Below are positions 25,721 to 57,720 of a DNA stretch of 60,652 bases, one piece after another. The stretch's first letter is position 1. Every line of letters starts with the position of its first letter. The position numbers and the translations under genes are program-made. The stretch comes from Haplodiscus bocki (taxonomy: Eukaryota): contig CBFHFQ010000478.1 in assembly GCA_965655095.1 (NCBI GenBank), positions 1-60,652 of the forward strand, given 5' to 3'. The notes under the pieces are model-generated. The model searched no databases. It was not told the DNA's origin and saw only the letters and a list, made by a program, of their open reading frames with translations.

Positions 25721-25729
25721 TTAGCGACG

Positions 25730-26530: not shown

Positions 26531-26549
26531 GAAAAAACCGCCACAAGGT

Positions 26550-26880: not shown

Positions 26881-26899
26881 AAAGACAAACAATTCTACA

Positions 26900-28270: not shown

Positions 28271-28279
28271 AGAGAAAAT

Positions 28280-29270: not shown

Positions 29271-29339
29271 TAACTTCAACCCCTCTCCATCCACTCCAGC
29301 TGATTAGATTCTTCAAAAGCTAAGTTTAGATTCATATGT

Positions 29340-33357: not shown

Positions 33358-34000
33358 AATATATCTAGGCCATATATCTTTTCCATTATAACAACCGAGA
33401 TTAACACCCAATTTCCTTAAACAATGTTGAATAAGAGCCATAGTCCTAACATTTGATCGTATTTATTCATTTCTAATTAATTCTAAATATTTTTTTTTCT
33501 GTTTCTAGAGTAAGTTAGATAGTTAATACATTATGTAAAACAATAACAATTAGATGGAAGATCTTAATTCTTTCCACGATATACAATAATTTGCTGTTTG
33601 AAATCGCATCCGTTTCCACATTTACCTCTGTTAACAACAATAAATTGAGGTGTATTTGAGTTATACATTTAACCATTAAAAATAGCATCATCAGATTCAT
33701 AGTCTTGATCGATAGCGTTTACCCAATGCTCGTAATCAGTAATAATTCTAAATCTAAAGTGTGTTTGACGAATGTGGTCACCAATTGATATTTCACTGAC
33801 CATTTCGAAATCATCAGTATAATCTCTCAATGTTTCATTTTTTTTGTAAATTTTTATCAATAACTTGAATTTTTTTTCAACTTTCCACTCTAAACTGTGG
33901 TTTATCCGCATTTTTAATTTCAACCAATTCATTATCTACTTCATTAATTTTTCTAATGACCATTCTTAAAATTATTTTTTCTTGATAATTTTTATACTCG
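33358..34000 (-). pseudogene. Probable pPolB N-terminal region
   Basis: YEHWVNAIDQDYESDDAIFNG..C..KCINYL..MA.IQ.CLRKLG lies upstream of and co-oriented with the polymerase fragment across the gap. Confidence 0.45.
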
Positions 34001-35375
34001 CTATTCATTATCATTTAAGTATCAAGAATTTTTTGAAATGGTTTATCTGAGATCTCATTTTCTCTACTTCAACATCACATCATCATTTTTTATTCCTGTT
34101 TTATGTTTAGGAGCAAAAAAGTCATCGAAATTAAAATAATCGTTCTCAATATTTTCATATTAATATTCTTCATTTTATTTATCATCTCTATTTTTAATCA
34201 CAGTATAAAATAAATCGTAAAGATTAATATTCATACTCTTAATGTTAGGCTTAGTCTGTAAAAAATTCATCAACAACAATACTTCCTGATAATGTTTACA
34301 TGTTTACTAATACCTTGAAATCTTTACTAAAAGGGTCTTCTTCGAAGTGAAAAGAATTGATTTGCCTTCTATGTTTCATATCATCATAATAATCAAAAAT
34401 CTTAAATTTGTTTTGTAATATTTTAATCATATCTACTGTTGAATTATGTTTAGTATTAACCACAGAATAATATATTTCTCTAATCTTTTTATTAGCAGAT
34501 GGCAATCTAGTTGAAAAAGTATGATCTTTTCTACGAACTTTGTTAACGATTTGATGTTTTTGTTTCTTGATATTATGTTCACAGTTTTAAGAGTAGTAAC
34601 CTTTATAAAATTCTAACTAATTATGTCTTTTACAACTAGGACATCAAGGTAAATTAACTTTTGGTTGTTGAATATTTGGTTGTTTGTTTTTAGGATAATG
34701 TTTAACTAATATTTCATCATTATTATTTTTAAAAAGTTTATGATTCTTCCTTATCTCTGTTCCATTCTATCGGTTTTTTGGTTCCTCACGGAGTCTTAAT
34801 ATAATATTTTCAGTTGGATGAATAATATCTCGTTTACTGTTTACTTCAAAATAATAGTTACCATTAAGAAGTTTCATTCAAATATTTTAAAACAGATCCC
34901 ATTAGATCATAATAGTTTATATTCACATAATAAGACCCATCATATTAAGCTAACCATTACATTAAACTACCACAATCATTACCATATTTATAAATAGCTT
35001 TGTTGTTCTTGAATAACAACTTTGTTGGAAATAAGGATTTATAATCATATCTCTATATTTCTCAATCTTTAGAATTTTAATTTTCACTTTTCTGTTTTTT
35101 AAAATGCATAGAACTCAATGTTTGTTCATGTAATCTTGACGTTCATAAGTTTTATGAAGATCTATACGAATACAAAATTTTTTGTGTTCAGCATTGTTTA
35201 ATCGATTGATAATTTTTTTTTCGTTGAATTTTACTGAAATCGTTTTTTTGTTTACTTACGTTGTTACCACATGAAACACATGTAAGTTGATACTCATATG
35301 GTAAAAACACATTTTGACCACAATGTCCACAATGTTTAGCAATTTTCTAATACTTTCATCTTCTGTTAGTTGCGT

Positions 35376-36240
35376 TTAGTATTTAATATATTTTTGAATT
35401 AAATTTAGTTTCTTCATACCTTGATCTTTTTCTTCAAGACATAGTTTTGATGGCAGTAAAAAATATTGGTTATATCTCTCAGTTAGATAATTGATTCTAT
35501 AGCTAAGAAAAGTGTCATGTATGACTTCAGTAATTGTATATAGATCATAGAACCAATTTGTACTATCACCTTTTGAGAATACATTTTTAAAATCAGCTGT
35601 ACGAAGTAATTGTCTTAGATGAAAGTCTGCTGTTTGTTTTTCTCTATCATCTCTGAGATTGGTGTAGACTTCTTTATTGTTTGGTTTTTTAGAAGCATCA
35701 TTTGGATTCATTTTAGCTGAGTTAAGAATGTTATTATTATATTGTTTAAGGATAGAATGTTTTTCACTTATCCAATCAGCGTTTCTTTTCAGTAAAAATT
35801 GTTTCATTAATAAATCATAAGTTTTTCTAGTGACCCTTCCAGCTATACTGGGACCTTCATCAGTAAATCATGATTAATATCGTATATTTTTCACTTTTAA
35901 GATTTTTTGAAACATAGATTTATACCATTCATTTCCTCTATCGTTTTTCAACTTGAGTGGTGTTCATTTTTATGTTGAAAGAATAATTGAAGATTCCTCT
36001 GTTCTTGTTTAACTGTTTTTTTTAAGTGGTATACACCACAAATAGTTTGAGAAATTATCGAATTTAATGAATATATACCTATATCCTTTGTTATTTGAAA
36101 TTTCGTAATCAATCATGTCAGCCAAATCAGTATTCCAAATTTCATCAAGGTGATTATATAAGATTTTATTAGTTTCAAAATTTTTCCTGGGGCTTTACTG
36201 TATATCTCAATATGAGAGTATCAATATTATTCTTCTTCAT
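35376..36240 (-). pseudogene. Retroviral-like (rve) Polinton integrase
   Basis: IWNTDLADMIDY..GYRYIFIKFDNFSNYLWCIPLK; NDRGNEWY; YNNNI..MNP; VFSKGDSTNW. Confidence 0.9.
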
Positions 36241-36249
36241 TATTTAATC

Positions 36250-36880
36250 TGAGAAATTGATAGACTTTTATAAATTCTTGTTGATAATCTAGGAAACTAA
36301 ATTTCATCCCCTAGTGCTGATGATGTTGTTTTAAAAGTGGTTGAGTAATTTTCCAATCAATTGCTTCTTTTAGTCTTTCACAACTGGATAGTGGGTATAT
36401 GAAATGAACATATTGGTTTCACATGGTTGATTTAGATTTTTAACCATTTCATCTCTGGTGTAAATTGAAACTCTATCCTTTTCCTATAATTATCATTACC
36501 TATACCCAAAATATCATTCGTTGAAACTGATTTTGACTTTCCCTGTAGAGTTTGTCTAATTGTACTTCTTGCTTCACAAACTAAACGAGAATTGGTATCT
36601 GTTTTGTATGTAATATTGGAAAAAAATTTTTCAAGAGCAATAATTTTATCATGAGTTTTCAATTGATCTTCATTTATTCAATCTGGATTATCTAAATAAA
36701 AATTTTTTCATTCGATTATCTAAATAATATTTTTTAGTTCTTACTGAAATTTCATTATAAAACTTTTTTCTATGAAATTTACTAAGCTTACATAATCCAT
36801 ATCTTCGTTTTTTATTTTTATGAAATTTTGTCAAAAATTTTTCTTTTTTACATTTGGAACATCTCTTCAAATCTTCACTC
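36250..36880 (-). pseudogene. HNH-type endonuclease with an N-terminal CxxC region
   Basis: KRCSKCKKEK..FHKNK; DILG..FQFTPEMKW; INHVKPICSF, resembling the (D)H.xP HNH motif. Confidence 0.65.
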
Positions 36881-36910
36881 GTTTATTTTACAAACTTTGA
36901 TTGAATTAAT

Positions 36911-37337
36911 TTACATAACTCGCAAGCGTAAGCCATTTCCATGCATAACAGAAGAACTCAAAATTTTACCCCCTGATATACTCTTTAGAATATTTGTAGT
37001 AGACTGTCCAACTTTTGGATTTTTAGTTTTAGCACTCCCAGACATGACAATAAACAGTGCTGATGCATTAATTGCTGGTTTTAGAATTTTATTCCAAGCA
37101 GCTTGTGTTCCTCGGAATATCGATTTAGGTTCGTTTTTAATTGATCCTCCTACGAGTTGAAATTGTCTTGGAGTGAAAGTAATTTGTTTCTGACATTTAC
37201 ATTTTGGATTTGCACAAAGATCATGTAATTTCAATATATCATGCTTTATTATTTAAATCGCACCATGTTGATATTGACATATTTGAGCAATGACTATTTT
37301 TACTTTTTGTTTTTTCCACAAAATCTTCTCGTGTCAT
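36911..37337 (-). pseudogene. Basic core-like protein with adenain cleavage motifs
   Basis: K-rich; contains LVGG|S, ISGG|K and MHGN|G. The start at 37337 connects by a frameshift. Confidence 0.5.
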
Positions 37338-37496
37338 TTACTCAGTAAAAATTTGAGTTATATCACGACCACAAATATCACAATTTGCTTTTATAATTAA
37401 AATGAGTTTTTGAGTTTTGGGTTTTAATTTTCCATTTACATTCCAATTAATTGGCTCACTATAATCACTTCCACCAACACACCATGTTTTTGTCAT
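37338..37496 (-). CDS. Small Cys-containing (zinc-ribbon-like) protein, 52 aa
   Basis: Open ATG-to-TAA frame MTKTWCVGG...ANCDICGR, tightly packed with its neighbours. Confidence 0.5.
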   Translation of the reverse strand: MTKTWCVGGSDYSEPINWNVNGKLKPKTQKLILIIKANCDICGRDITQIFTE

Positions 37497-37529
37497 TTAA
37501 CATTTAAATTATTGAATATTCCGGAGGAG

Positions 37530-38211
37530 CACTCGGTTGAATATCATTTTTTTCTTCTTTCTAGGTTTGAATAAAGTTATCTCTATACAGAAATTATTAT
37601 TCACAATAATTTGGCTAAAAAATTGTTAAGTTGAACTAATTGTTCTGGTGGAAGAAAATCTTTACTTTTTACATCACCAAAAACAACTTCTGCTCTGAAA
37701 ACAGTATTTTGCATAGTTTCTTTTCTTTTATCAAGGTAATGAGTATAAATCTTTTCTAAAGCCTGTGCTTCTTTATCATAAATTTTTTATCTATCAACGA
37801 TTGTTTCAAATTTTTCTCACATAACAAAGTAATAACAATAATCCAATCTCTCAATTTAGTAAATCGTATCTTCAATTTTGATATAAGTTCATTAGTGATT
37901 AAGGAAGCAATACCAGTTAATAAAGCTGTAGAACTAGTTAATTTTACACCAATGCTTGGATTTGCTAATGAAACAGTGGAAGTGAGTATAGCTGATCCTG
38001 ATCGTAAAAAAAATTCAAAGATATTTATTAGTACTTTCATTTTTTTAAAGCTTTATATTTCTTCCCAATACTCGTTTTCTTTTCTGAGTGATTTAAATAT
38101 ATTCTCATCATCATGTTTTTCTTTTTTGTATCCTAAATCTTTAATTTCATCATCCTTTGTTTTTATTTTTAACAGTTTTCGATCATTAGTCAAAATTGGA
38201 TATGTACTCAT
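37530..38211 (-). pseudogene. Putative membrane protein: charged segments flanking two hydrophobic helices
   Basis: Charged N-terminus, then SGSAILTSTVSLANPSIGVKLTSSTALLTGIASLIT, then a charged C-terminus. Confidence 0.5.
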
Positions 38212-38431
38212 TTGTTAAACAGAAAAGACTCTTCTAATAAGTGTAAAAAAATTATCTTTTAATCACTTTTGGCGGTCTAATGTTTGTAGAGCCAGTTTTT
38301 TTTATATTACAAAATTCTTCATCAGTAAATATTGATTGTTTAGAAATATCAAGATCTGTTAAGGATAATAGTAAAATATAACTTCTTTCATGACGTACAC
38401 CTTCAAACATTGCAGCAAAATAATGTTCCAT

Positions 38432-38674
38432 TTACCTATAGAAAATCATTTCCAAAAATGATTCTTCTTCGTTTTCAATATAAATCAAGTATTCTCCATT
38501 TTGTTCAAGTAAAATATATTCAAACTCTTGAAACAAACTATTAATATCATTTTTTATATAACCACTTTCTATTAAAAAATCAGTATCCTTTTTAAAATTT
38601 AAAAATGAAACTACTAGTTTTGTATAATCTGGTATTATTTCGAATAAATCTTTAAAGTAGTTTACATGATCCAT
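38432..38674 (-). CDS. Small acidic hypothetical viral protein (80 aa)
   Basis: Intact ORF whose start and stop abut neighbouring genes through TAAATG. Confidence 0.5.
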   Translation of the reverse strand: MDHVNYFKDLFEIIPDYTKLVVSFLNFKKDTDFLIESGYIKNDINSLFQEFEYILLEQNGEYLIYIENEEESFLEMIFYR

Positions 38675-40278
38675 TTAGTAAACAGAATGTGTTGTTGTTA
38701 TATTATTGAAGCTTATATCAGCATGAGGAGTATCTATTTCATCGTATATTATTTTTTTACCATATTTTTCTACAGTAACTTAATTTCGTCCATTGTGTTG
38801 ATGTTGGTAAATCGATCCTTCTTAGGTCTTTTATATCTTGTAGGCCATGCATTATCACCGAATAACAGTTAAAAAGTAAGCCTACCCATTGATTTTAATG
38901 AGTCATTAAATAAAATTGAAAATATTTTATAATAGAAAGAACTTTTAGTAATTTGTCTAATATCTGTTCGTTCGGAGGAAACAATCATATTATTACCATA
39001 ATTATTAGAGCTCGTTTCTCTATACATAAAACTAGCACCAATCGGAGCTAAGCTTGTCGCTCCGGAAAACCCTGTTGGACTGTTTGTTATTGTTGATTTC
39101 ATAAAGTTTTGTATTTTACCAATAATATTGTTATCATTACGCTTTATAACCAAATTCTGTTATAGATATTCTCTTTTACTTCAGAATAGATTGATTGTTG
39201 TATCAGTAGTTTGTTTTTTGTCATATGGTGTAAAATTATTTGTTTTATTTTCAACAGATACTTCCACTTCCAAATAAATATCTAACATGTGAAAAAAACT
39301 GAGAATACTTCCATCTCCTTTTGAATCATCAACACATTTTTTGTTGGCTAGCTCTTTATGTGAATTAGAATTTCAAAAAACCACAACGCTTGGAAATTGT
39401 TTATTTTATTATTGTCAAATTCTTTGCCTTGATCATTATATACTGACGATAAATCTCGTCTTTTTCAATTGCTTTCATGTAAGGTATCAACATATGGTTT
39501 AGTAGGTATTTCTATTATCGTCTTTGGTGACGTTAGATTAGAAGTGAGAAGTGGTGAGTTTGTTTCATCTAGTTTTATTTTTTCCATCAGGACCCAATCT
39601 TAACATTGATGGTTCGTTTGCACTACAAAAAATAGCATTTTCAACATAATAATTTGCTGCTAAATGTTGTCCAACTACGGGCATGCTGTTTACTTTAACG
39701 AATTTAACGTTATCGGCATTTTCATCATTGAACTCAACATGAACAATGTTTTTTTATTATACTGGGATCAATAAATTATTCATCAACGTAGGATTTGGTT
39801 GGTATTTCTATTATCGTTTTCGGTAATGTTAAAGTAGAATTAAAAATTATTGAAGTTTTGCACCTAGTTTAATTCTTTAATCAGGATCTATTATCAATAA
39901 TGATGATTCATCTACATTATTAGAAAAAGTTTGATCAACATGTAACTTCGGTGTTAGATATCCTTCAAGGGTAGATATTGAGTTTAATTTGATAAAAGGA
40001 ACAATCTTGAGATTTTTATCATCGAAGTCAACATGAGTGGTCTTTTCTTTTATACTAGGATCCATAAATTTATCTTCAACAAAATTTTTTGGAGCCGTTT
40101 CTCATATGGATTTAGGTTCTAGTAAGTTTTTATTTGAATATTGATTTTTTAAGTCTATATCTTCTTCAAACTTAGCTTCCACATAATTGGTTCTCAAAAA
40201 ACATTTTTGTACCAATAAACTAGTATCAATTTTATTTGCAGAAATATTTGAACTAATACCAAATTTGTTATTGGACAT
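38675..40278 (-). pseudogene. Fibre/spike-like repeat protein (the only copy with the native C-terminus)
   Basis: Repeated KxYVD-type motifs (TKSYVDE, TKPYVDT, NKKCVDD, PKLHVDQ) and two ~95-aa internal repeats. Confidence 0.5.
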
Positions 40279-40282
40279 TTTT

Positions 40283-40683
40283 AATTAACTGAAATACATT
40301 TTTTGAAATAGCATCATATTATTTCAATCTTTTAATTAGAAAGAAAAACGACAAGCAATATGATCCGCATGATCGGAATTTTTTTCTTTGAATTTTCTAA
40401 TTATGATATATTCTTGGTTTGGGTAATTGATTGAGTAAAATTTTGTCTAGAACTTTACCGAAACTAACGAAATAAAATGATTTATCGTCTTTTACTATAA
40501 TGAAAACCCAATGGGCTCCCCCTTGTTCCCGTTGTCTTTTTTTGAGAATCCTTTATCTGAATTTAATTTTGAATCTCTCGGGTATTTCTTATAAATATAA
40601 ATTTCTTGCAAATCACTATCTTCCCTACCACCATTTTTTGAAATATATGTTTTCATGAAATCTTTTAAAATAAATATACTCAT
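40283..40683 (-). pseudogene. Adenain-like protease (copy 1; repeated at ~44230-44631, ~48180-48581 and ~52120-52522)
   Basis: G(A/T)HWV, YF.SFG, KIQ and CGSYCL motifs across frameshifts. Confidence 0.8.
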
Positions 40684-43600
40684 CTTTATATATTGTTAAC
40701 ATCTCCATCTACAAGAACTCTGCTAGCTCCAACAGCAGCACCTTCTTCTATTGTCTTTTCATTTTGAAGATAAGCATTACCGATTTGATGATAATTATAA
40801 ATTTCACCAAAAATGAATTCACCATTTTGATCAGAATCATTTATATTTGCTGCTTGTTCATGACAAGTATTCTAAAAATCTGTTTTTCTAATTGAATTAT
40901 CAATTGTTTCAATATCTAATAATTGAAAATCTTCAAGAATTCTTTTGTTATGCATAAAAAGCTAAGTGTAATCAATAAAGCCACTTCCTGGGAATATATT
41001 TCGTTTAAATGATTGTAAGTTTGGTGGTAATGTAGATGTATTATTTTTTATTTGAGGCTTAGGTTTTTGTTTAAAATGTTTTAAAAAAATCTTGGTTTTA
41101 TTAAGGTCTTCGTCATTTATTGGATAAAAATCAAACTTCTTTGATAGTTAATCTAAGTGTTATTGATTGACCAATAAAAAATACTAACTTTCCATTTTCG
41201 ATTTTCAATTTCAAACCAAAACTTGAAATGAAGTCTTTAGATTCCTTCATATACCATTGTACTCCTCCTCTGAATTTTTCAATTTTTTTGTAACCAGGAT
41301 CAACCCCATTGTAAAATTGTGTATTATTCTACTTCGTTTTTTGTCTAAAAGTCATTCCTTGAGCGATATCAATTTCTAAAAAATATTATCAATTGATACA
41401 ATATCATAGATCTCTGATACTATTATCATGAATGAAACTAATTTGAGTACCAATGAAGTTTGGTTTAATTTCTGTATTATTTCCATAAAGTGGAAAAAAT
41501 TGGTTAATTTACAAATGGATATTTTTCTTCTGTAAAATGCTCTTCTTTGATAATATTTCAATCAATTTCATCGTTTAAGCTCTCGAGTTCATATGTACCA
41601 GGTGAAATAGAAAAAAACAATAAATTCATCATTGTTGATTGATACCGTGAAATAAAATTTGTTATTTTTGTTTATAACATTAAAAATACCACTATAGCCA
41701 GTTAGAAAAGTGACAGCTAGTTTAGGTTGTTTATTATTCGTTTGTAATGATTGAAGTAGATGTTCTTCGTGTGTAGATTGATTCATGATAATTAACATAT
41801 GTTCTTCCACTTTAGGTCTTGTATTAATTGCGATTTGTTCTGATTTTTTACTTGGAAGCTCCAATTTTTATGTTTGGAATTTTTCAGGAGCTTTTCGATG
41901 TTGTTGTTTGTTTTTTATTTCCGCCTTTTGTAGAATTCATCTAGTAAATTACTAGCTTCTGTTAGGGTTTCATTGTGTCCAGATAACTTAAAACCTAGTA
42001 ATACTTCTAATCTAGAGTAGATATCAATTATATTGGATGGTATGATAGTTTTTTCAATTCCCTGGCTTTCTAAGTCATTATCAGAGATTTTTTTTTCATT
42101 AGAATCTTCTATATTCTCAATTTCTGGTAACGGAAGATATAAAAATTGAGTTTTTGTTTTTGGTAGATTATGCAAAGCATCTTTCAATCAAGCAGAAATT
42201 GAACATTTTGTATGTTCCTTATCAGAGAATCCAACAGTATTAAGTATATCAACTACTGTTTCTCTTTCAATATTATTCGATGGATTATTAGTGAGTTTAA
42301 TATAAGTAAAAAAATTTTGACTTTTAGGAGTTATATCAAATTCTCATTTTCAACATTATTTCTATTTTGTCCAAGTGGTTGAAAAAATACACCAATCCAA
42401 ATTACATATCAGTTTGATTTTTTTTTTCTAATTTGAAAAATTTTTTGCTGCTTTTCATAAGAGTTAAAGTATCACGTAATGGTTGAGTACCGGTTATTTT
42501 TTCTGAAGCTGGTCTTTGTTTGTTTTAATCCTCAACATATGATTTCTTAACTATTTCACCTATTTTTTTCAGTACTCCTTTTCACCTCATCTAAATTTCC
42601 TGCTAGTTTTTTATCATAAGTTTATTTTAAAGTTCTATTTTTAATTTTACGCGCTCGTTGATTTTTCTCGTAGATTAATCAAACTTTGTTCTGTTTCGTT
42701 GGATTAAATACTCAGTTACCTGATTTAAAAAAGCGAACTGTCTGGTACGTATATTGAATTTAATCCTAATCGATAATGGCCTGTGTGTTTATACTTTGTC
42801 AAATCAATGGTAAGTGGTTGATAAGTTTTATCCCAACATGTACTACTAAAGTATTTAAATTCGTTAAGTGTCATATCTATGATAGCTTTGTCTTGCTTAA
42901 GATTTTGAACATCTCTATATATTTTAGGTTTGAAAATGTGATAGATATTTCCCTTGGCTCGGATATTTCGTTTTGGTAATTCCTAGTAATCTTGAAGGCT
43001 CACAAAAATTGGTATATCCAGAAAACCCTGTTGGACTGTCTGTTTTTGTTGATTTTATAAATTTTTGTATTTTACCGTTAATATTGTTATCATTACGTTT
43101 TGTAACCAAAATCTGTAATAGATATTCTCCTCTATTTGGGAATCACTTAGTTGTTGTATCAGTAAATTGTATTTTGTCATATGGAGTAAGATTATTTGTT
43201 TTATTTTCAACAGATACTTTCAAATAAATATCTAACATTTGAATAAAACTGAGAACACTTCCATCTCCTTTTGAATCATCAACACATTTTTTATTGGCTA
43301 GCTCATTATCTGAATTAGGATTTCAAAAAACCACAACACTTGGAAATTGATTATTTTATTATTATCAAATTCCTTGCCATGATCGTTATATACTGACGAT
43401 AAATCTCGTCTGTTTTTATTGCTTTCATGTAAGGTATCAATATACGGTTTAGTAGGTATTTTTATTATCGTCTTTGGTGACGTTAGATTAGAATTGAGAA
43501 GTGGTGAGTTTGTTTCATCTAGTTTTTATTTTTCCATCAGGAACCAATCTTAACATTGATGGTTCGTTTGCACTACAAAAAATAGCATTTTCAACATAAA

Positions 43601-44633
43601 TATTTGCTGCTAAATGTTGTCCAACTACGGGCATGCTGTTTACTTTAACGAATTTAACGTTATCGGCATTTTCATCATTGAACTCAACATGAACAATGTT
43701 TTTTATTATACTGGGATCAATAAATTATTCATCAACGTAGGATTTGTTTGGTATTTCTATTATCGTTTTCGGTAATGTTAAAGTAGAATTAAACATTTTG
43801 AAGTTTTGCCCCTAGTTTCATTCTTTAATCAGGATCTAATATCAATAATGATGATTCATCTACATTATTAGAAAAAGTTTGATCAACATGTTTCTTCGGT
43901 GTTAGATATCCTTCAAGGGTAGATATTGAGTTTACTTTGATAAAAGGAACAATATTGAGATTTTTATCATCGAAGTCAACATGAGTGGTGTTTTCTTTTA
44001 TACTAGGATCCATAAATTTATCTTCAACAAATTTTTTTGGAGCCGTTTCTCATATGGATTTAGGTTCTAGTAAGTTTTCATTTGAATACTGATTTTTTAA
44101 GTCTATATCTTCTTCAAAATTAGCTTTCACATAATTAGTTCTCAAAAAACATTTTTGTACAAATAAACTAGTATCAATTTTATTTGCAGAAATATTTGAA
44201 CTATTACCAAATTTGCAATTGGACATTTTTAATTAACTGAAATACAATTTTTAAAATAGCATCATATTATTTCAATCTTTCAATTAAAAAGAAAAACGAC
44301 AAGCAATATGATCCGCATGATCGGAAAATTTTTCTTTGAATTTTGTATGTATGATATATTCTTGGTTTGGGTAATTGATTGAGCTAAAGTTTATCTAGAA
44401 CTTTACCGAAACTAACGAAATAAAATGATTTATCATCTTCTACTATAAAGAAAACCCAATGTGTTCCCCCTTGTTCCCTTTGTCTTTTTTTAAGAATCCT
44501 TTATCTGAATTTAAATTTGAATCTCTCGGGTGTTTCTTATAAAAATAAAATTCTTGTAAATCACTATCATCCCTACCACCATTTTTTGAAATATATGTTT
44601 TCATGAAATCTTTTAAAATAAATATACTCATCT

Positions 44634-44903
44634 TTATATAATGTTAACATCTCCATCTACAAGAACTCTGCTAGCTCCAACAGCATTAACTTCTTCTCTT
44701 GTCATTTCATATTGAAGATAAGCATTACCGATTTGATGATAATTATAATTTTCACCAAAAATGAATTCACCATTTTGATCAGAATCATCTAAATTTGCTG
44801 CTTGTTCATGACAAGTATTCTGAAAATCTCTTTTTCTAATTGAATTATCAATTGTTTCAATATCTAATAATTGAAAATCTTCAAGAACTCTTTTGTTATG
44901 CAT
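44634..44903 (-). pseudogene. Internally deleted major capsid (89-aa open mini-ORF, array copy 2)
   Basis: The N-terminus of the major capsid is fused in frame to its last codons; compare 52526-53814. Confidence 0.7.
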
Positions 44904-47900
44904 AATAAGCTAAGTGTTATCAATAAAGCCACTTCCTGGGAATAATTTTTGTTTAAATGATTGTAAGTTTCGTGGTAATGTAGATGTATTATTTTTTATT
45001 TGAGGCTTAGGATTTTGTTTAAGTTTTTTTTAAAAAAAATCTTGGTTTTATTAAGGTCTTCGTCATTTATTGGATAAAAATCAAACTTCTTTGATAGTTA
45101 GTCTAAGTGTTATTGATTGACCAATAAAAAATACTAACTTTCCATTTTCGATTTTCAATTTCAAACAAAAACTTGAAATGAAGTCTTTAGATTCCTTCAT
45201 ATACCATTGTACTCCTCCTCTGAATTTTTCAATTTTTTTGTAACCAGGATCAACCCCATTGTAAAATTGTGTACTATTCTACTTCGTTTTTTGTGTAAAA
45301 ATCATTCCTTGAGCGATATCACTTTCTAAAAATATTATCAACTGATACAATATCATAGATCTCTGATACTATTATCATGAATGAAACTAATTTGAGTACC
45401 AATGAAGTTTGGTTTAATTTCTGTATTATTTCCATAAAGTGTAAAAAATTGGTTAATTTACAAATGGATATTTTTCTTCTGTAAAATTCTCTTCTTTGAT
45501 AATATTTCAATTAATTTCATCATTTAAGCTCTCGAGTTCATATGTACCAGGTGAAATGGAAAAAAACAATAAATTCATCATTGTTGATTGATACCGTGGA
45601 ATAAAATTTGTTATTTTTGTTTAAAACATTAAAAATACCACTATAGCCAGTTAGAAAAGTCACAGCTAGTTTAGGTTGTTTATTTTTCGTTTGTAATGAT
45701 TGAAGTAGATGTTCTTCGTGTGTAGATTGATTCATGATAATTAACATATGTTCTTCCATTTTAGGTCTTGTATTAATTGCGATTTGTTCTGATATTTAAC
45801 TTGGAAGCTCCATTTTTTATGTTTGAAATTTTTTAGGAGCATTTCGATGTTGTTGTTTGTTTTTTATTTCCGCCTTTTGTAGAATTCATCTAGTAAATTA
45901 CTAGCATCTGTTAGGGTTTCATTGTGTCCAGATAACTTAAAACCTAGTAATACTTCTAATCTAGAGTAGATATCATTTATATTGGATGGTATGATAGTTT
46001 TTTCAATTCCCTGGCTTTCTAAGTCATTATCAGAAATTTTTTTTTCATTAGAATCTTCTATATTCTCAATTTCTGGTAACGGAAGATATAAAAATTGAGT
46101 TTTTGTTTTTGGTAGATTATGCAAAGCATCTTTCAATCAAGCAGAAATTGAACATTTTGTATGTTCCATATCAGAGAATCCAACATTATTAAGTATATCA
46201 AATACTGTTTCTCTTTCAATAATATTCGATGAATTATTAGTGAGTTTAGTATTAGTAAAAAAATTTTGAATTTTAGGAGTTATATCAAATTCTCATTTTC
46301 AACATTATTTCTATTTTGTCCAAGTGGTTGAAAAAATACACCAATCCAAATTACATCTCAGTTTGATTTTTTTTTCTAATTTGAAAAATTTTTTGCTGCT
46401 TTTCATAAGAGTTAAAGTATCACGTAACGGTTGAGTACCGGTTATTTTTTCTGAAGCTGGTCTTTGTTTGTTTTAATCCTCAACATATGATTTCTTAACT
46501 ATTTCACCTGTTTTTTATCAGTACTCCTTTTCACCTCATCTAAGTTTCCTGCTAGTTTTTTTATCATAGGTTTATTTTAAAGTTCTATTTTTAATTTTAC
46601 GCGCTCGTTGATTTTTCTCGTAGATTAATCAAACTTTGTTCTGTTTCGTTGGATTAAATACTCAGTTACCTGATTTAAAAAAGCGAACTGTCTGGTACGT
46701 ATATTGAATTTAATCCTAATCGATAACGGCCTGTCTGTTTATACTTTGTCAAATCAATGGTAAGTGGTTGATAAGTTTTATCCCAACATGTACTACTAAA
46801 GTATTTAAATTCGTTAAGTGTCATATCTATGATAGCTTTGTCTTGCTTAAGATTTTGAACATCTCTATATATTTTAGGTTTGAAAATGTGATAGATATTT
46901 CCCTTGGCTCGGATATTTCGTTTTGGTAATTCCTAGTAATCTTGAAGGCTCACAAAAATTGGTATATCCAGAAAACCCTGTTGGACTGTCTGTTTTTGTT
47001 GATTTTATACATTTTTGTATTTTACCGTTAATATTGTTATCATTACGTTTTGTAACCAAAATCTGTAATAGATATTCTCCTCTATTTGGGAATCACTTAG
47101 TTGTTGTATCAGTAAATTGTATTTTGTCATATGGAGTAAGATTATTTGTTTTATTTTCAACAGATACTTTCAAATAGATATCCAACATTTGAAAAAAACT
47201 GAGAACACTTCCATCTCCTTTTGAATCATCAACACATTTTTTATTGGCTAGCTCATTATCTGAATTAGGATTTCAAAAAACCACAACACTTGGAAATTGA
47301 TTATTTTATTATTATTAAATTCCTTGCCATGATCGTTATATACTGACGATACATCTCGTCTATTTCTATTGCTTTCATGTAAGGTATCAACATATGGTTT
47401 AGTAGGTATTTCTATTATCGTCTTTGGTGACGTTAGATTAGAAGTGAGAAGTGGTGAGTTTGTTTCATCTAGTTTTAATTTTTCCATCAGGACCCAATCT
47501 TAACATTGATGGTTCGTTTGCACTACAAAAAATAGCATTTTCAACATAAATATTTGCTGCTAAATGTTGTCCAACTACGGGCATGCTGTTTACTTTAACG
47601 AATTTAACGTTATCGGCATTTTCATCATTGAACTCAACATGAACAATGTTTTTTATTATACTGGGATCAATAAATTATTCATCAACGTAGGATTTGGTTG
47701 GTATTTCTATTATCGTTTTCGGTAATGTTAAAGTAGAATTAAAAATGTTGAAGTTTTGCCCCTAGTTTCATTCTTTAATCAGGATCTAATATCAATAGTG
47801 ATAATTCATCTACATTATTAGAAAAAGTTTGATCAACATGTAACTTCGGTGTTAGATATCCTTCAAGGGTAGATATTGAGTTTACTTTGATAAAAGGAAC

Positions 47901-50900
47901 AATATTGAGATTTTTATCATCGAAGTCAACATGAGTGGTGTTTTCTTTTATACTAGGATCCATAAATTTATCTTCAACAAATTTTTTTGGAGCCGTTTCT
48001 CATATGGATTTAGGTTCTAGTAAGTTTTCATTTGAATACTGATTTTTTAAGTCTATATCTTCTTCAAAATTAGCTTTCACATAATTAGTTCTCAAAAAAC
48101 ATTTTTGTAAAAATAAACTAGTATCAATTTTATTTGCAGAAATATTTGAACTATTACCAAATTTGCAATTGGACATTTTTAATTAGCTGAAATACAATTT
48201 TTAAAATAGCATCATATTATTTCAATCTTTCAATTAAAAAGAAAAACGACAAGCAATATGATCCGCATGATCGGAAAATTTTTCTTTGAATTTTGTATGT
48301 ATGATATATTCTTGGCTTGGGTAATTGATTGAGCTAAAATTTTTCTAGAACTTTACCGAAACTAACGAAATAAAATGATTTATCATCTTCTACTATAAAG
48401 AAAACCCAATGGGTTCCCCCTTGTTCGCGTTGTCTTTTTTTAAGAATCCTTTATCTGAATTTAATTTTGAATCTCTCGGGTGTTTCTTATAAATGTAAAA
48501 TTCTTGTAAATCACTATCATCCCTACCACCATTTTTTGAAATATATGTTTTCATGAAATCTTTTAAAAAATATATACTCATCTTTTCATATTGTTAACAT
48601 CTCCATCTACAAGAACTCTGCTAGCTCCAACAGCAACACCTTCTTCGATTGTCATTTCATATTGAAGATAAGCATTACCGATTTGATGATAAATATAATT
48701 TTCACCAAAAATGAATTCACCATTTTGATCAGAATCATTTAAATTTGCTGCTTGTTCATGACAAGTATTCTAAAAATCTCTTTTTCTAATTGAATTATCA
48801 ATTGTTTCAGTATCTAATAATTGAAAATCTTCAAGAATTCTTTTGTTATGCATAAAAAGCTAAGTGTAATCAATAAAGCCACTTCCTGGGAATAAATTTC
48901 GTTTAAATGATTGTAAGTTTGGTGGTAATGTAGATGTATTTTTTTTATTTGAGGCTTAGGTTTTTCTTTAAGTTGATTTACAAAAATCTTGGTTTTATTA
49001 AGGTCTTCGTCATTTATTGGATAAAAATCAAACTTCTTTGATAGATAATCTAAGTGTTATTGATTGACCATTAAAAAATACTAACTTTCCATTTTCGATT
49101 TTCAATTTCAAACCAAAACTTGAAATGAAGTCTTTAGATTCCTTCATATACCATTGTACTCCTCCTCTGAATTTTTCAATTTTTTTGTAACCAGGATCAA
49201 CCCCATTGTAAAATTGTGTATTATTCTACTTCGTTTTTTGTCTAAAAGTCATTCCTTGAGCGATATCAATTTCTAAAAAATATTATCAACTGATACAATA
49301 TCATAGATCTCTGATACTATTATCATGAATGAAACTAATTTGAGTACCAATGAAGTTTGGTTTATATTCTGTATTATTTCCATAAAGTGGAAAAAATTGG
49401 TTAATTTACAAATGGATATTTTTCTTCTGTAAAATGCTCTTCTTTGATAATATTTCAATTAATTTCATCGTTTAAGCTCTCGAGTTCATATGTACCAGGT
49501 GAAATAGAAAAAAACAATAAATTCATCATTGTTGATTGATACCGTGAAATAAAATTTGATATTTTTGTTTATAACATTAAAAATACCACTATAGCCAGTT
49601 AGAAAAGTGACAGCTAGTTTAGGTTGTTTATTATTCGTTTGTAATGATTGAAGTAGATGTTCTTCGTGTGTAGATTGATTCATGATAATTAACATATGTT
49701 CTTCCATTTTAGGTCTTGTATTAATTGCGATTTGTTCTGATATTTAACTTGGAAGCTCCATTTTTTATGTTTGAAATTTTTTAGGAGCATTTCGATGTTG
49801 TTGTTTGTTTTTTATTTCCGCCTTTTGTAGAATTCATCTAGTAAATTACTAGCATCTGTTAGGGTTTCATTGTGTCCAGATAACTTAAAACCTAGTAATA
49901 CTTCTAATCTAGAGTAGATATCATTTATATTGGATGGTATGATAGTTTTTTCAATTCCCTGGCTTTCTAAGTCATTATCAGAAATTTTTTTTTCATTAGA
50001 ATCTTCTATATTCTCAATTTCTGGTAACGGAAGATATAAAAATTGAGTTTTTGTTTTTGGTAGATTATGCAAAGCATCTTTCAATCAAGCAGAAATTGAA
50101 CATTTTGTATGTTCCATATCAGAGAATCCAACAGTATTAAGTATATCAAATACTGTTTCTCTTTCAATAATATTCGATGAATTATTAGTGAGTTTAGTAT
50201 TAGTAAAAAAATTTTGAATTTTAGGAGTTATATCAAATTCTCATTTTCAACATTATTTCTATTTTGTCCAAGTGGTTGAAAAAATACACCAATCCAAATT
50301 ACATCTCAGTTTGATTTTTTTTTCTAATTTGAAAAATTTTTTGCTGCTTTTCATAAGAGTTAAAGTATCACGTAATGGTTGAGTACCGGTTATTTTTTCT
50401 GAAGCTGGTCTTTGTTTGTTTTAATCCTCAACATATGATTTCTTAACTATTTCACCTATTTTTTTCAGTACTCCATTTTACCTCATCTAAAATTCCTGCT
50501 AGTTTTTTATCATAAGTTTATTTTAAAGTTCTATTCCTAATTTTACGCGCTCGTTGATTTTTCTCGTAGATTAATCAAACTTTGTTCTGTTTCGTTGGAT
50601 TAAATACTCAGTTACCTGATTTAAAAAAGCGAACTGTCTGGTACGTATATTGAATTTAATTCTAATCGATAACGGCCTGTGTGTTTATACTTTGTCAAAT
50701 CAATGGTAAGAGGTTGATAAGTTTTATCCCAACATGTACTACTAAAGTATTTAAATTCGTTAAGTGTCATATCCAAGATAGCTTTGTCTTGCTTAAGATT
50801 TTGAACATCGCTATATATTTTAGGTTTGAAAATGTAATAGATATTTCCCTTGGCTCGGATATTTCGTTTTGGTAATTCCTAGTAATCTTGAAGGATTATA

Positions 50901-52525
50901 AAAATTGGTACATCCAGAAAACCCTGTTGGACTGTCTGTTTTTGTTGATTTTATAAATTTTTGTATTTTACCGTTATTATTGTTATCATTACGTTTTGTA
51001 ACCAAAATCTGTAATAGATTTTCTCCTCTATTTGGGAATCACTTAATTGTTGTATCAGTAAATTGTATTTTGTCATATGGAGTAAGATTATTTGTTTTAT
51101 TTTCAACAGATACTTTCAAATAAATATCCAACATTTGAATAAAACTGAGAACAATTCCATCTCCTTTTGAATCATCAACACATTTTTTATTGGCTAGCTC
51201 ATTATCTGAATTAGGATTTCAAAAAACCACAACGCTTGGAAATTGAGTATTTTATTATTATTAAATTCCTTGCCATGATCGTTATATACTGACGATACAT
51301 CTCGTCTATTTCTATTGCTTTCATGTAAGGTATCAACATATGGTTTAGTAGGTATTTCTATTATCGTCTTTGGTGACGTTAGATTAGAAGTGAGAAGTGG
51401 TGAGTTTGTTTCATCTAGTTTTAATTTTTCCATCAGGACCCAATCTTAACATTAATGGTTCGTTTGCACTACAAAAAATAGCATTTTCAACATAAATATG
51501 CTAAATGTTGTCCAACTACGGGCATGCTGTTTACTTTAACAAATTTAACGTTATCGGCATTTTCATCATTGAACTCAACATGAACAATAATTTCTATTAT
51601 ACTGGGATCAATAAATTATTCATCAACGTAGGATTTGGTTGGTATTTCTATTATCGTTTTCGGTAATGTTAAAGTAGAATTAAAAATTTTGAAGTTTTGC
51701 CCCTAGTTTCATTCTTTAATCAGGATCTAATATCAATAATGATGATTCATCTACATTATTAGAAAAAGTTTGATCAACATGTTTCTTCGGTGTTAGATAT
51801 CCTTCAGGGGTAGATATTGAGTTTACTTTGATAAAAGGTACAATATTGAGATTTTTATCATCGAAGTCAACATGAGTGGTGTTTTCTTTTATACTAGGAT
51901 CCATAAATTTATCTTCAACAGAGTTTTTTGGAGCCGTTTCTCATATGGATTTAGGTTCTAGTAAGTTTTTATTTGAATATTGATTTTTTAAGTCTATATC
52001 TTCTTCAAAATTAGCTTCCATAAAATTAGTTCTCAAAAAACATTTTTGTACAACCAAACTAGTATCAATTTTATTTGCAGAAATATTTGAACTATTACCA
52101 AATTTGCTATTGGACATTTTTAATTAACTGAAATACAATTTTTAAAATAGCATCATATTATTTCAATCTTTCAATTAAAAAGAAAAACGACAAGCAATAT
52201 GATCCGCATGATCGGAAAATTTTTCTTTGAATTTTGTATGTATGATATATTCTTGGTTTGGGTAATTGATTGAGCTAAAATTTTTCTAGAACTTTACCGA
52301 AACTAACGAAATAAAATGATTTATCATCTTTTACTATAAAGAAAACCCAATGGGTTCCCCCTTGTTCTCCATTGTCTTTTTTTAAGAATCCTTTATCAGA
52401 ATTTATTTTTGAATCTCTCGGGTATTTCTTATAAATATTTTTTTTTGTAAATCACTATCGTCCCTACTACCAATTTTTGAAATATATGTCTCATGAAATC
52501 TTTTTTAAAATAAAAATACTCAATT

Positions 52526-53830
52526 TTATATATTGTCAACTTCTGTAACTTTATTACCATCCGATGTTATTTTCATTCTCTATGTCTAATTAAAAAGATA
52601 AACAGTCTAGTATTATTAGTAGCACCTCTATATTCTTCAAAAATTTGAATTTTCTATAGGTTAATAAGATCAACTTGAAATCCTAAATCAATGACTTGAA
52701 TAGGGTATATATTTTTCTCATCAGTATAACTTGTAAAAGGACTGAGTAGTTGTTCACAGACATATTCTTTTTAAAATCTTTTTAGATCTCTATACTGATC
52801 AACATAGTTATCTGATGTATGATCAATGCTAACACAATCTCCGGGTTAGCGACCACCATCGACATCAACATGATACTTTCTCCTATTTAGATTAATAAGG
52901 ATAGCAATGCTTTTTGCTTTGTTAGGGACTCCTACTCTAGCTACTGTTTGATTAGCTACTATTAGATACCTAGGACTATTGATATTTTGAGCAAAAACTA
53001 TGTCGACTTGGTATTCTAACTGAGTATGGACAGTTTTTCTATCGGTACTGCAAAAATATAATGACAATGTAAAACTCTTCTTAATAGAGTCATTAAACAT
53101 TATCTGTGTTTCAGCATCGGGAATGAATATTGGTACAAATAAAAAAAAATCATCAAATTTTACTTCAATATCATCACCTAGTGTTGTATATATGATATCT
53201 TGAAATCAGATGTTTTGAATGTTACATGAAATCCTAATTGTTTAGTGATCTTTTTAAAAGTTCTCCAAAATCCAAAAGTATGTTCAAGAGGTAATTGCCC
53301 TTTAGTTTTACCTTTTTTTGACAGCTATATTGTGGTTGTTAATAGGATGATGATGTAGTGATGTCTATTCAATTTCAGCTTCTGATTCAGCAATTTTATC
53401 AAAATGGGATAATAAATCTCGATATTTACCTGTTAAAGCTCTCATAATTGGGATAATTTGTCATACATATTTACTTTGTTCTATATCTGAACCTCCAGTC
53501 TTAGATAATCTAGTTTCTTTAAAACAATTTGCAAAAGCATTATTTACTAATCTATTAACATCTCCACCTTCAAGAACTCTTTTAGGTGCAACAGCAACAT
53601 CTTTTTCTATTGTCATTTCATATTGAAGATAAGCATTACCGATTTGATGGTAATGATAATTTTCACCAAGTATGAATTCACCATTTTGATCAGAAACATT
53701 TAAGTTTGCTGCTTGTTCATGACAAGTTTTCTAAAAATCTCTTTTTCTAATTGAATTATCAATTGTTTCAGTATCTAATAATTGAAAATCTTCAAGAATT
53801 CTTTTGTTATGCATAAAAAGCTAAGTGTAA
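52526..53830 (-). pseudogene. Major capsid protein (full-length only in array copy 4)
   Basis: RLVNNAFANCFKETRL..GGSDIEQ.KY; LPLEHTFGF; YQVDI..AQNINSPRYLIVANQT; YPIQVIDLGFQ. Confidence 0.8.
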
Positions 53831-53989
53831 TCAATAAAGCCACTTCCTGGGAATAAATTTCGTTTAAATGATTGTAAGTTTGGTGGTAATGTAGATAATT
53901 CTTTTTTATTTGAGGCTTAGGTTTTTGTTTAAGTTTGTTAAAAAAATCTTGGTTTTATTAATGTCTTCGTCATTTATTGGATAAAAATT

Positions 53990-54830
53990 AAATTTCTTCG
54001 ATAGATAATCAAAGTGTTAATGATTGACCAATAAAAGATAGTAACTTTCCATTTTCATTTTTTAATTTCAAACCAAACTTGAAATGAAGTCTTTAGATTC
54101 CTTCATATACCATTGTATTCCTCCTCTGAATTTTTCAATGTTTTGGTAACCAGGATCAACACCAATTGTAAAATTGTGTATTATTTCACTTCGTTTTTCT
54201 CTAAAAATCATTCCTTGAGCGATATCACTTTCTAAAAATATGTTATCAAATGTTACAATATCAGCGTGATTTGGTGATAGGTTATATTTTTCAGATATTG
54301 CACCTGAATCAATTCCTAATAGATCTCTGATACTATCATCATGAATGAAACTAATTTGAGTACCAATGAAGTTTGGTTTAATTTCTGTATTACTTCCTTG
54401 AATTGGAAAAATAGGGTTAATTTACAAATGGACAATTTTCTTCTGTAATATGCTCTTCTTTGATAATATTTCAATTAATTTCAACGTTTAAGCTCTCGAG
54501 TTCATATGTACCAGGTGAAATAGATAAAAACAATAAATTCATCATTGTTGATTGATACCGTGAAATAAAATTTGTTATTTTTGTTTATAACATTAAAAAT
54601 ACCACTATAGCCAGTTAGAAAAGTGACAGCTAGTTTAGGTTGTTTATTATTCGTTTGTAATGATTGAAGTAGATGTTCTTCGTGTGTAGATTGATTCATG
54701 ATAATTAACATATGTTCTTCCACTTTAGGTCTTGTATTAATTGCGATTTGTTCTGATTTTTTACTTGGAAGCTCCAATTTTTATGTTTGGAATTTTTCAG
54801 GAGCTTTTCGATGTTGTTGTTTGTTTTTTA
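53990..54830 (-). pseudogene. Minor capsid protein (penton-like); copies with a 56-bp deletion at ~41140-41900, ~45090-45850 and ~49040-49800
   Basis: IFNVINKNNKFYF..SPG.YEL..LN; IIHNF...PGY; ENG..SF.GQS, a Polinton penton pattern. Confidence 0.7.
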
Positions 54831-55660
54831 TTTCCGCCTTTTGTAGAATTCATCTAGTAATTTACAAGCTTCTGTTAGGGTTTCATTGTGTCCAGATAAC
54901 TTAAAACCTAGTAATACTTCTAATCTAGAGTAGATATCAATTATATTGGATGGTATGATAGTTTTTTCAATTCCCTGGCTTTCTAAGTCATTATCAGAAT
55001 TTTTTTTCATTAGAATCTTATATATTCTCAATTTCTGGTAACGGAAGATATAAAAATTGAGTTTTTGTTTTTGGTAGATTATGCAAAGCATCTTTCAATC
55101 AAGCAGAAATTGAACATTTTGTATGTTCCATATCAGAGAATCCAACAGTATTAAGTATATCAAATACTGTTTCTCTTTCAATATTATTCGATGAATTATT
55201 AGTGAGTTTAGTATTAGTAAAAAAATTTTGAATTTTAGGAGTTATATCAAATTCTCATTTTCAACATTATTTCTATTTTGTCCAAGTGGTTAAAAAAAAT
55301 ACACCATTCCAAAATACATCTCAGTTTGATTTTTCTTCTAATTTGAAAATTTTTTTGCTTCTTTTCATAAGAGTTAAAGTAGCACGTAATGGTAGAGTAC
55401 CGGTTATTTTTTCTAAAGCTGGTCTTTGTGTGTTTTAATCCTCAACATATGATTTCTTAACTATTTCACTTATTTTTTCAGTACTTTTGTTTACCTCATC
55501 TATTTTTTTAGTGATATGTGATAAATTTTCTGCTAGTTTTTTATCATGACTTTATTTTAAAATTCTATTTTTAGTTTTAAGCGCTCGTTGATTTTCTATT
55601 TTTCTGCTGTTCTGCTAAATTATGCAGATTAATCAAATTTTGTTCTGTTTCGTTGGATCA
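54828..55660 (-). pseudogene. Conserved Polinton hypothetical gene
   Basis: C-terminal IDIYSRLEVLLGFKLSGH resembles the RL.LL....GN/GH motif of a recurrent Polinton ORF; present in all four array copies. Confidence 0.45.
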
Positions 55661-55669
55661 AATACTCAG

Positions 55670-56405
55670 TTACTTATAATAAAAAAGCGAACTGTCTGGT
55701 AAGTATATTGAATTTAATCCCAATCGATAACGGCCTGTGTGTTTATACTTTGTCAAATCAATGGTAAGTGGTTGATAATTTTTATCCCAACAAGTACTAC
55801 TTAAGTATTTAAATTCGTTAAGTGTCATATCCATGATAGTTTCCTCTTTCTTGAGATTTTGAATATCGCTATATATTTGAGGTTTGAAAATGTGATAGAT
55901 ATTTCTTTTGGCTCGGATATTTCATTTTAGTAATTCCTAGTAATCTTGAAGGATTATAAAAATAGGTAAAATGTTGTGTCTAGATCTCTTAAACATCGCT
56001 TCTACTCTAGGATCGTTCGTCGCTCGTTCATTCAAATCATCTAGAATAATATTACCCCCATCATATTATTCTTGAGAAAAATTTTCATTCTTCAGTTGCT
56101 TTTCATGCCTGTATTTCAGTATCTGATTTTTCAAAGTCTTCAGCAGTACATATCTCATTAATTTTTTTATCAATATCTTCGTCATTGAGAATATTTGGGA
56201 TTATATAAATTAGTATATAGTTGCTAAAACGTTCAATCAGTTTTTGATATGAATCTTGGTGTACACTTGGAGAGTAGATGTACATTTTACTATTTTCATT
56301 GAAAATATTCAAAACTAAAGTTGTTAGAAATACTGGTTTACCACAATCTGATGATTCGGTTATGCTACAACGAACTGGATGAGATGGGTGTAAAATTTTC
56401 TCCAT
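55670..56405 (-). pseudogene. A32/FtsK-like packaging ATPase
   Basis: Degenerate Walker A ITESSDCGKP, IYSPS, Walker B GVIILDDLN, and arginine finger MFKRSRHN. Confidence 0.85.
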
Positions 56406-56593
56406 TATAATTTTATGGTTAATGAAGGTTTATTTAGTCTGTATATCATTAAATTCATTAAACATAAAATTGATAAACCACATGGTATTGTTAATAGTAA
56501 TGTTGGTATAATTATATCATTATTATTTTCATTGTCTGTACTATTAGCGAAGGTAATAATATCATAATTATCAGTTATATTTAACACATACAT
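56405..56593 (-). CDS. Small single-pass membrane protein (62 aa)
   Basis: Hydrophobic IIIPTLLLTIPCGLSILCLMNLMIY; stop overlaps the ATPase start (TAATG). Confidence 0.5.
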   Translation of the reverse strand: MYVLNITDNYDIITFANSTDNENNNDIIIPTLLLTIPCGLSILCLMNLMIYRLNKPSLTIKL

Positions 56594-56929
56594 TTCTTTG
56601 ATGAAATGAAATACTTTTTGTCGCTGATAGTTTTGATTATCATTTCAATTGTATGTAAAAATATATAACCTTTTAAATCAAAACATTCAATCCAATATAA
56701 TAAAAAAAAATTTCGTGTGGATATTTGATGTATTCTAATGAAATTCAAATTTAATAAGAGAACAAAATTAATTAATTAAAAAAGCTAGTTTAAAATAACA
56801 TTTGATAAAATAAAAATCAAAAAATTTTTTTGTGGTTAGTCATATGATCTTTGTATATTTTATCTATTTCAAAGAAATCAGGTTTAATCAATAACAAAAC
56901 TTCTATTTGCAATAGATTTAATATATTGC

Positions 56930-57124
56930 TCACAATTGTGATCCCTTGTTATTTGTAAGAAGATTATTTTTTTGTTGTCTTTTACGGGTAATAGTAATAT
57001 GATTTCCTGATTCAAGATGACTGTTATAAAAACTTTCTAAACAGAGTTTATCAAATATATCACAACTCTTTCTATTTTCATCATCATCAGCGCAATATAT
57101 AGCTTCTTGATGTTCACTCTCCAT
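56930..57124 (-). CDS. Small zinc-finger-like protein (degenerate C2H2/matrin type)
   Basis: CDIFDK...HLESGNH spacing; TAAATG start. Confidence 0.45.
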   Translation of the reverse strand: MESEHQEAIYCADDDENRKSCDIFDKLCLESFYNSHLESGNHITITRKRQQKNNLLTNNKGSQL

Positions 57125-57245
57125 TTATTTAAAAATGATTATTTCGAATGATTTACTCAAGATCCTGATTTTCACCTATATAAATGAAAACAATTAAAGA
57201 TGTGTTGATTTCTTTTAATCAATTTTTTTGATAGGTAATTTTAAT

Positions 57246-57720
57246 ATGGACAGAGTTATCAGACTAAATAAAGCACCTAATTGTTTGAATAAATATTTAT
57301 CAGAATACAATAACAAAGATGAGAGTCTTTAGTTTGTAATTTTAGCTATTATAGAAAAGATACCAATAATGCTCATTGATAGAAATACTGGAGATCTTCA
57401 TATTCAAATAACTGATTTTCGAGCTAATCTATTAAAATTAGTTTGTTTAGAAAATTTAAAAAGTCGTCATCAAATTGAAGAAATAGAAGTGGAGGATATT
57501 ACTAATTTTAGAAGTGAAAAAAGGAATTAATACTAATAAATGGTTGTGAAAGTGAAGGAAAATTTGAAAAGACTAGACATGTTAAAAATAAATTTTACGT
57601 GGGGAGAGAAATGTGAGATATTATGATAAAATTCTATATAATAGAAGGAATCTAATAATTTCAATTAAATTTATAATAAAAAATGTTAAAATTTCATACC
57701 AGTTTAAAAATTTATACGAT
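57246..57720 (+). pseudogene. Divergently oriented hypothetical gene of element B
   Basis: MDRVIRLNKAPNCLNKY... frame with internal stops; TATATAAA lies in the divergent intergenic region near 57177. Confidence 0.3.

Follow-up and report, generated by a model that had tools for sequence, protein, structure and literature searches.

A four-unit tandem array inside a decayed Polinton/adintovirus-like element of Haplodiscus bocki, probably formed by stepwise neutral repeat turnover

The element and its genes

We analyzed a stretch of 60,652 nucleotides from Haplodiscus bocki, referred to below as the window. It contains the visible part of a decayed Polinton/adintovirus-like element. Within this element lies a head-to-tail array of four units. 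The features are as follows.

33158..33357, no strand: assembly gap of 200 N, which cuts the left end of the element.
33358..57700, minus strand: visible part of the element, placed by GC and gene content; the right end is approximate.
33358..34400, minus strand: candidate 5' part of a protein-primed polymerase gene, taken from the translation and labeled by position.
35340..36200, minus strand: retrovirus-like integrase gene, broken, single copy (PF00665 rve, E 6.5e-5, 23.6 bits against a curated cut-off of 32.6).
38678..40278, minus strand: fibre-like gene, the sole full-length copy, broken (the 532-aa homologue P0121 aligns at 40278-39061 and ends at 38678).
39061..43016, minus strand: copy 1, the left terminal unit of 3956 bp, with the capsid deletion; the outlier of the four at the left end.
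40696..40937, minus strand: 5' stub of the major capsid gene in copy 1, with equivalents in copies 2 and 3 (residues 3-60 of the 418 in the homologue P0005).
43017..46966, minus strand: copy 2, a chimeric internal unit of 3950 bp with the capsid deletion.
46967..50912, minus strand: copy 3, a chimeric internal unit of 3946 bp with the capsid deletion.
50913..55968, minus strand: copy 4, 5056 bp, right terminal unit of the original unit length, outlier at the right end.
52131..52536, minus strand: adenain-like protease gene of copy 4, broken, also in copies 1-3 (placed by homologue alignment).
52537..53555, minus strand: segment unique to copy 4, 1019 bp, the 3' ~80% of the major capsid gene, holding the PF21738 match.
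52538..53796, minus strand: major capsid gene, double jelly-roll, broken, full length only in copy 4 (PF21738, E 4.8e-5; 6 stops and 3 frameshifts).
53991..54777, minus strand: penton-like (minor capsid) gene of copy 4, broken (placed by homologues and lesions; copies 1-3 have a 56-bp deletion).
54802..55669, minus strand: conserved ORF of copy 4, broken, also in copies 1-3 (homologues P0270, P0376 and P0242).
55679..56660, minus strand: A32/FtsK-like packaging ATPase gene, broken (homologues match 56584-55679; the 5' limit was set by eye).

The GC content of the element is 0.23-0.30, against ~0.34-0.41 across most of the flanking sequence. A GC step near 57.7 kb marks the approximate right end of this AT-rich block. 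No long inverted repeat was found within 30000-60652, where the longest arms were 40 nt at 70%. The element has no similarity to the sequence left of the gap and no relative among prokaryotic genomes. The window contains no Rfam family. In gene content the element agrees with the adintovirus set of PMC8502044 in its rve integrase, double jelly-roll capsid, FtsK/A32 ATPase and, more weakly, adenain-like protease. As far as these tests reach, the parent is Polinton/adintovirus-like.

The capsid frame of copy 4 has 460 homologues, the best of them 59% identical, and most of the 120 listed carry PF21738. A sequence-profile search of the PDB with the major capsid gave no match. The penton-like gene has 626 homologues; among the matches listed, most are 260-261 aa long. 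Its Atlas feature match to the Sputnik minor capsid V18/19 cluster scored 0.97 at rank 28 of 30, and 26% of the members of that cluster carry PF21507. The penton-like gene itself has no Pfam or PDB match. The structure predicted for a homologue had a pLDDT of 37.0; the model was unusable and the fold was not confirmed.

The protease gene is weakly adenain-like. One of 10 homologues matches PF00770 (E 8.9e-4), and the best PDB match is adenain at an E value of 0.28, which is not significant. The ATPase homologue P0247 matches PF04665 Pox_A32 (E 4.7e-16), and the two frames of the window itself have no Pfam match. The conserved ORF matched no family in a Pfam search.

The fibre-like gene has the 5' three quarters of its length inside copy 1. 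It contains an internal repeat of ~296 bp at 66-69% identity. One of two homologues matches a tail protein in PHROGs (E 2.7e-5). The closest PDB match is a tail fibre at E 0.15, and the best Atlas score is 0.79. The structure predicted for a homologue was unusable (pLDDT 36.8). A fold search with this poor model placed an uncharacterised Drosophila-associated adintovirus protein at the top with a TM score of 0.15, which is a lead at most. The identity of this repeat-containing gene as a fibre is weakly supported.

The original prediction also named single-copy integrase, pPolB and HNH genes. The integrase-like region is indeed single copy within the window. The other two labels found no such backing, as neither the candidate polymerase stretch nor the HNH stretch has a significant Pfam or PHROGs match (best E 0.036, to a family of unknown function). 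We take 33358..34400 to be the candidate protein-primed polymerase from its position. Its part at 33358-34100 has no match in Pfam or PHROGs. The candidate polymerase start is only ~1 kb from the 200-N gap, and the catalytic part falls outside the window.

Layout and divergence of the four units

Self-comparison of the window resolved a head-to-tail array from 39061 to ~55968. The four predicted units are present and start at 39061, 43017, 46967 and 50913. A 9.5-kb self-alignment at 96% identity places the array far above chance. Tandem Repeats Finder, with a period limit of 500, does not report it. The array genes are all on the minus strand, in the ATPase-to-fibre order first given. Its units meet at a single type of junction, present three times, and the outer flanks share no long homology.

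Both unit breakpoints lie within genes, one in the ATPase gene and the other in the fibre-like gene. The unit was said to be almost exactly the virion-morphogenesis module. Of the ATPase it takes in only the last ~95 codons, and of the 532-residue fibre-like gene residues 1-401. A 5056-bp segment placed uniformly would fall wholly inside the 6131-bp ATPase-to-fibre block 8-14% of the time, a range that depends on the assumed length of the element. The match of unit to module is therefore loose and is a mild coincidence.

The major capsid gene was also thought to be part of each unit. It is present at full length once and as a stub three times. Copies 1-3 share a 1019-bp deletion that removes ~80% of the gene. 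Copy 4 aligns with residues 3-415 of the 418-residue capsid homologue, and copies 1-3 align with only residues ~3-65. Relative to copy 4, copies 1-3 also lack segments of 56, 24 and 21 bp in the four-way alignment. A near-identical ~5-bp word is found at both ends of the 1019-bp segment, and the deletion was probably made by microhomology-mediated repair. It sits in a zone that resembles copy 1, with copy-1 matches at 61 of 76 and 62 of 77 sites. From this location we infer that the deletion happened in the left lineage and reached the inner units from there.

Sequence differences among the copies are larger than the slight ones noted by eye. In the four-way alignment, pairwise differences run from 2.46% (copies 2 and 3) to 6.11% (copies 1 and 4) over ~3930-3946 shared columns. 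Divergence between copies 1 and 4 is 9-11% at the array ends and reaches 13.6% in the first 199 columns. A 638-column patch in which these terminal copies differ by 1.1% lies beside regions at 8-11%.

The differences are ordered along the unit. Variant classes are clustered, with 151 of 329 neighboring variable sites in the same class, against 79 +/- 7 when permuted. Of 43 singleton sites at the left end, 37 belong to copy 1 only; of 63 at the right end, 48 belong to copy 4 only. In both cases the observed value was reached in 0 of 100000 permutations. The clustered variant classes and polarized singletons rule out amplification in a single burst.

Copies 2 and 3 are chimeras of copies 1 and 4. 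Among informative sites at the left end, copy 2 agrees with copy 4 at 40 of 48; at the right end it agrees with copy 1 at 54 of 56. For copy 3 the corresponding counts are 43 of 49 and 48 of 56. Unequal crossing-over in a two-copy tandem gives inner units with a left part from the right copy and a right part from the left copy. The divergent edges and chimeric inner copies are what unequal exchange predicts. A single crossover is insufficient for copies 2 and 3, because they have 42 and 30 private sites, respectively, and 19 more sites common to only the two of them, all in clusters. The clustered private tracts and the 1.1% patch thus call for further conversion, lost copies or other haplotypes. 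The array has the characters of tandem arrays derived from mobile elements: monomers made from an internal piece with one repeated junction, recombinant monomers and edges that are the most divergent part.

These data also bear on the assembly. Plain duplication of one unit by the assembler is ruled out by the structured differences of 2.5-6.1%. A partial artefact would leave the array real and its copy number wrong, with copies 2 and 3 as alleles set in tandem or with other copies collapsed. We regard this as unlikely. In its favor, no other pair is as similar as copies 2 and 3 (2.5% different), whose left junctions are identical at all but 1 of 300 bases. The assembly gap is 5.7 kb away, and the array is judged from the assembled sequence. 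Against this, the terminal copies are without doubt separate sequences. Neighbors are identical over runs of at most 500 bp and copies 1 and 4 over runs of at most 335 bp, and every copy has private sites, 30-126 in number. The array is therefore not one unit assembled four times.

Decay and proposed history

Every gene in every unit carries stops, frameshifts or truncation; the lesion calls rest on homologues 48-68% identical, some of them probably decayed themselves, and single frameshifts, mainly in the ORF, are uncertain. Across the sequence that all units have in common there are 24 stop positions, and 11 of these are present in all four copies. The predicted TAG early in the major capsid gene is present in copies 1, 3 and 4 and absent from copy 2. 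The protease frameshifts are not shared by all units as had been supposed. One is common to copies 1-3, and copy 4 lacks it and has two others instead. Some stops could have been spread by conversion after duplication, so the shared-stop count is possibly inflated.

The copies have diverged without protein constraint. Across the six pairs, with 1102-1137 codons per pair, pN/pS is 0.69-1.01 and in no pair differs from 1 (Fisher p 0.21-1.0). The differences between copies 1 and 4 are even by codon position (63/55/62). A frame-free spacing test found no 3-periodicity in the copy differences. The array ends were tested separately, as copies 1 and 4 are least homogenised there and conversion could spread lesions later. 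At these ends copies 1 and 4 share 6 stops, with 2 and 2 unshared. Their pN/pS is 0.99, from 16.5 synonymous and 65.5 non-synonymous differences in 310 codons. Stops had already begun to accumulate in the element when it was first duplicated. The proposal that amplification followed decay is thus borne out, even at the ends that are 9-11% divergent.

Stop density gives 0.075-0.094 substitutions per site since loss of constraint, assuming equal rates. The distance between copies 1 and 4 at the ends is 0.094-0.124, or ~0.05-0.06 per lineage since the first duplication. Set side by side, these values suggest that the first duplication came part-way through decay.

We consider it likely that the array was formed by neutral tandem-repeat turnover, in several steps, inside a dead endogenous Polinton/adintovirus-like element. 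Stops were already building up in the element at the outset. A single head-to-tail duplication of a 5.06-kb internal stretch, at a break with little or no homology, would have come next. The left and right copies would then have drifted 9-11% apart. The left lineage would have lost the 1019 bp of the major capsid gene; the deletion is observed, and its order and mechanism are the likeliest we can propose. Misaligned recombination may then have added the two internal units, the left part of each following the right copy and the right part following the left copy, which is the pattern seen. Gene conversion or further exchanges would have homogenised patches. The initial duplication and the capsid deletion are consistent with illegitimate repair, judging from the lack of long homology at the former and the ~5-bp word at the latter. 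The process is ordinary, and the substrate is uncommon. The single amplification of the morphogenesis module first proposed does not describe this multi-step history, in which three units are capsid-depleted.

No working protein product is encoded by the array, which most likely does nothing. Its sequence lends no support to a small-RNA role or to a decoy role. A role as a protein decoy is very unlikely, because stops, frameshifts or truncation affect every gene of every unit. An RNA-level function needs no open frames. The array could be neutral in origin and now be kept as a source of piRNA or siRNA against active relatives, which we think quite improbable. It multiplies the structural genes and not the integrase, full-length members of the family are numerous in public assemblies, and the 500-bp identical run points to recent exchange in an array that is still turning over. 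Three of the four units, however, have lost most of the major capsid gene, and the sequence has drifted ~8-9% from its own coding ancestor. The closest of 120 capsid homologues compared have 62-67% protein identity over the tested stretch. All copies have the same orientation, with no long inverted repeat in 30000-60652. In mammals, degraded Mavericks are reported to be neutral and to lie outside piRNA clusters (PMC9683012).

In its strongest form, the small-RNA reading makes the array a host defence locus. Unequal exchange would maintain dosage, and the array would be transcribed into small RNAs that silence virion genes in intact elements related to it within that genome. We likewise hold this to be quite improbable. 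If array small RNAs did target live relatives, the locus would be of far greater importance. Local amplification would then have produced a DNA-virus equivalent of antiviral endogenous viral elements. As an instance of neutral turnover, the array illustrates clearly, on a small scale, the birth of a multi-kilobase tandem array within a dead DNA-virus fossil; its importance is modest. In such genomes, the number of capsid, penton or protease genes may reflect host recombination and not viral activity.

Viral origin and known systems

An origin in the virus itself is highly improbable, whether as a concatemer, as a defective genome replicated in trans, or as a pair of related viruses that inserted in tandem and were joined by a deletion. 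For this virus group, 10.64898/2026.10.13.758929 describes tandem integration as well as tandem morphogenetic modules with 70-78% identity, and the terminal copies here are 9-11% apart at their ends. Two functional viruses would, however, differ mainly at synonymous sites, against the pN/pS of 0.99 at the array ends, where the terminal copies also share stops. A one-step concatemer predicts a star pattern, which the permutation test rejects. The unit is sub-genomic, and its breakpoints are inside genes. Derivation of the copies from different functional viruses is ruled out by pN/pS and the shared stops. The same two results support the original preference for a host-chromosome event over a viral concatemer.

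The tandemly integrated polisuviruses can be compared with the array. As in this array, capsid-gene blocks are repeated in tandem in them, in some cases within degraded endogenous elements (10.64898/2026.10.13.758929). They are viral genomes, either distinct or mosaic, and their replicases differ, whereas the copies here descend from one dead element and show no protein constraint. Tandem integration is disfavoured here because the synonymous-biased divergence that it predicts is absent.

Degraded adintoviruses and Mavericks also resemble the parent element. As described in PMC8502044 and PMC9683012, they contain the integrase, packaging ATPase, adenain-like protease, double jelly-roll capsid and penton-like gene. 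Their genes are likewise interrupted by stops and frameshifts and evolve neutrally. The element described here differs in its tandem array; the word "tandem" is absent from the main text of both papers. The available portions of PMC11131425 and PMC9248874 describe no internal Polinton array. A limited search of the open-access literature found no array of this kind described within a Polinton, which is not proof of absence.

In mode of formation the array is like tandem repeats derived from transposable elements in plants. These include CRM1TR and CRM4TR of maize and, as cited in the same paper, Sobo of potato with its 4.7-kb monomer (PMC3648361). In CRM1TR and CRM4TR, as here, an internal stretch of a mobile element became a head-to-tail monomer through an illegitimate junction. 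Variation by gene conversion or unequal exchange, with recombinant monomers, is also common to both (PMC3648361). The sources differ. CRM1TR and CRM4TR derive from the LTR and UTR of an LTR retrotransposon, and the present array derives from the coding structural block of a Polinton-like DNA element. Unlike those repeats as described there, this array has only four copies and is still in place inside its parent element.

Array copies and the early capsid stop

The major capsid gene repeated in the four-unit array is broken, and an early TAG stop lies near its start in copies 1, 3 and 4. Copy 2 is the only unit without the stop (around 44820). It carries private variant tracts near 44820, close to the site of the missing stop. 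Together, the missing stop and the nearby tracts hint at a donor copy that has since been lost from the array.

Further features of the right-hand element

Small broken genes were found at 36900-38200 (minus strand), with the integrase region of the decayed Polinton/adintovirus-like element on one side and its fibre-like gene on the other. One contains a hydrophobic stretch, and another is basic. A Pfam search of the tested frames, some of them off-frame, returned no match. They lie beyond the repeated unit and could encode accessory or core components of the virion.

Near the approximate right end of the element, GC content steps up at about 57.7 kb. A short palindromic word is repeated at 57970-58090, and short inverted motifs occur at 58180-58310. 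The interval 57700-58300 may be the end of the element or a separate small mobile element.

Sequence left of the assembly gap

The stretch at 24600-31500 (plus strand) is far more decayed than the right-hand element. By eye it contains integrase-, capsid-, protease- and polymerase-like pieces, which we take to represent a candidate second Polinton family. The label stays a candidate because a Pfam search of the stretch gave no relevant match and comparison with the right-hand element showed no resemblance. Within it, self-comparison of the window retrieved two adjacent copies of ~280 bp (29703-30271; 71.5% identity). The pair may have arisen by a further local tandem duplication, of greater age than the array, or may be a natural internal repeat of the gene. 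A direct repeat of ~296 bp (28945-29242 and 31827-32120) has 69% identity and a spacing of 2.9 kb.

Self-comparison also retrieved a 1.1-kb inverted repeat (4833-5934 and 16870-17973; 85% identity) and a 225-bp direct repeat (2848-3072 and 16630-16853; 81% identity). These dispersed repeats are probably host mobile elements.

Internal repeat of the fibre-like gene

The fibre-like gene contains an internal tandem repeat of ~296 bp (about 99 codons) at 39486-40080, with 66-69% identity. Equivalents are present in each array copy. Full-length fibre-like homologues contain a comparable repeated block by eye, and they fall mostly into two length classes of ~495 and ~532 residues. The internal repeat is therefore older than the array.
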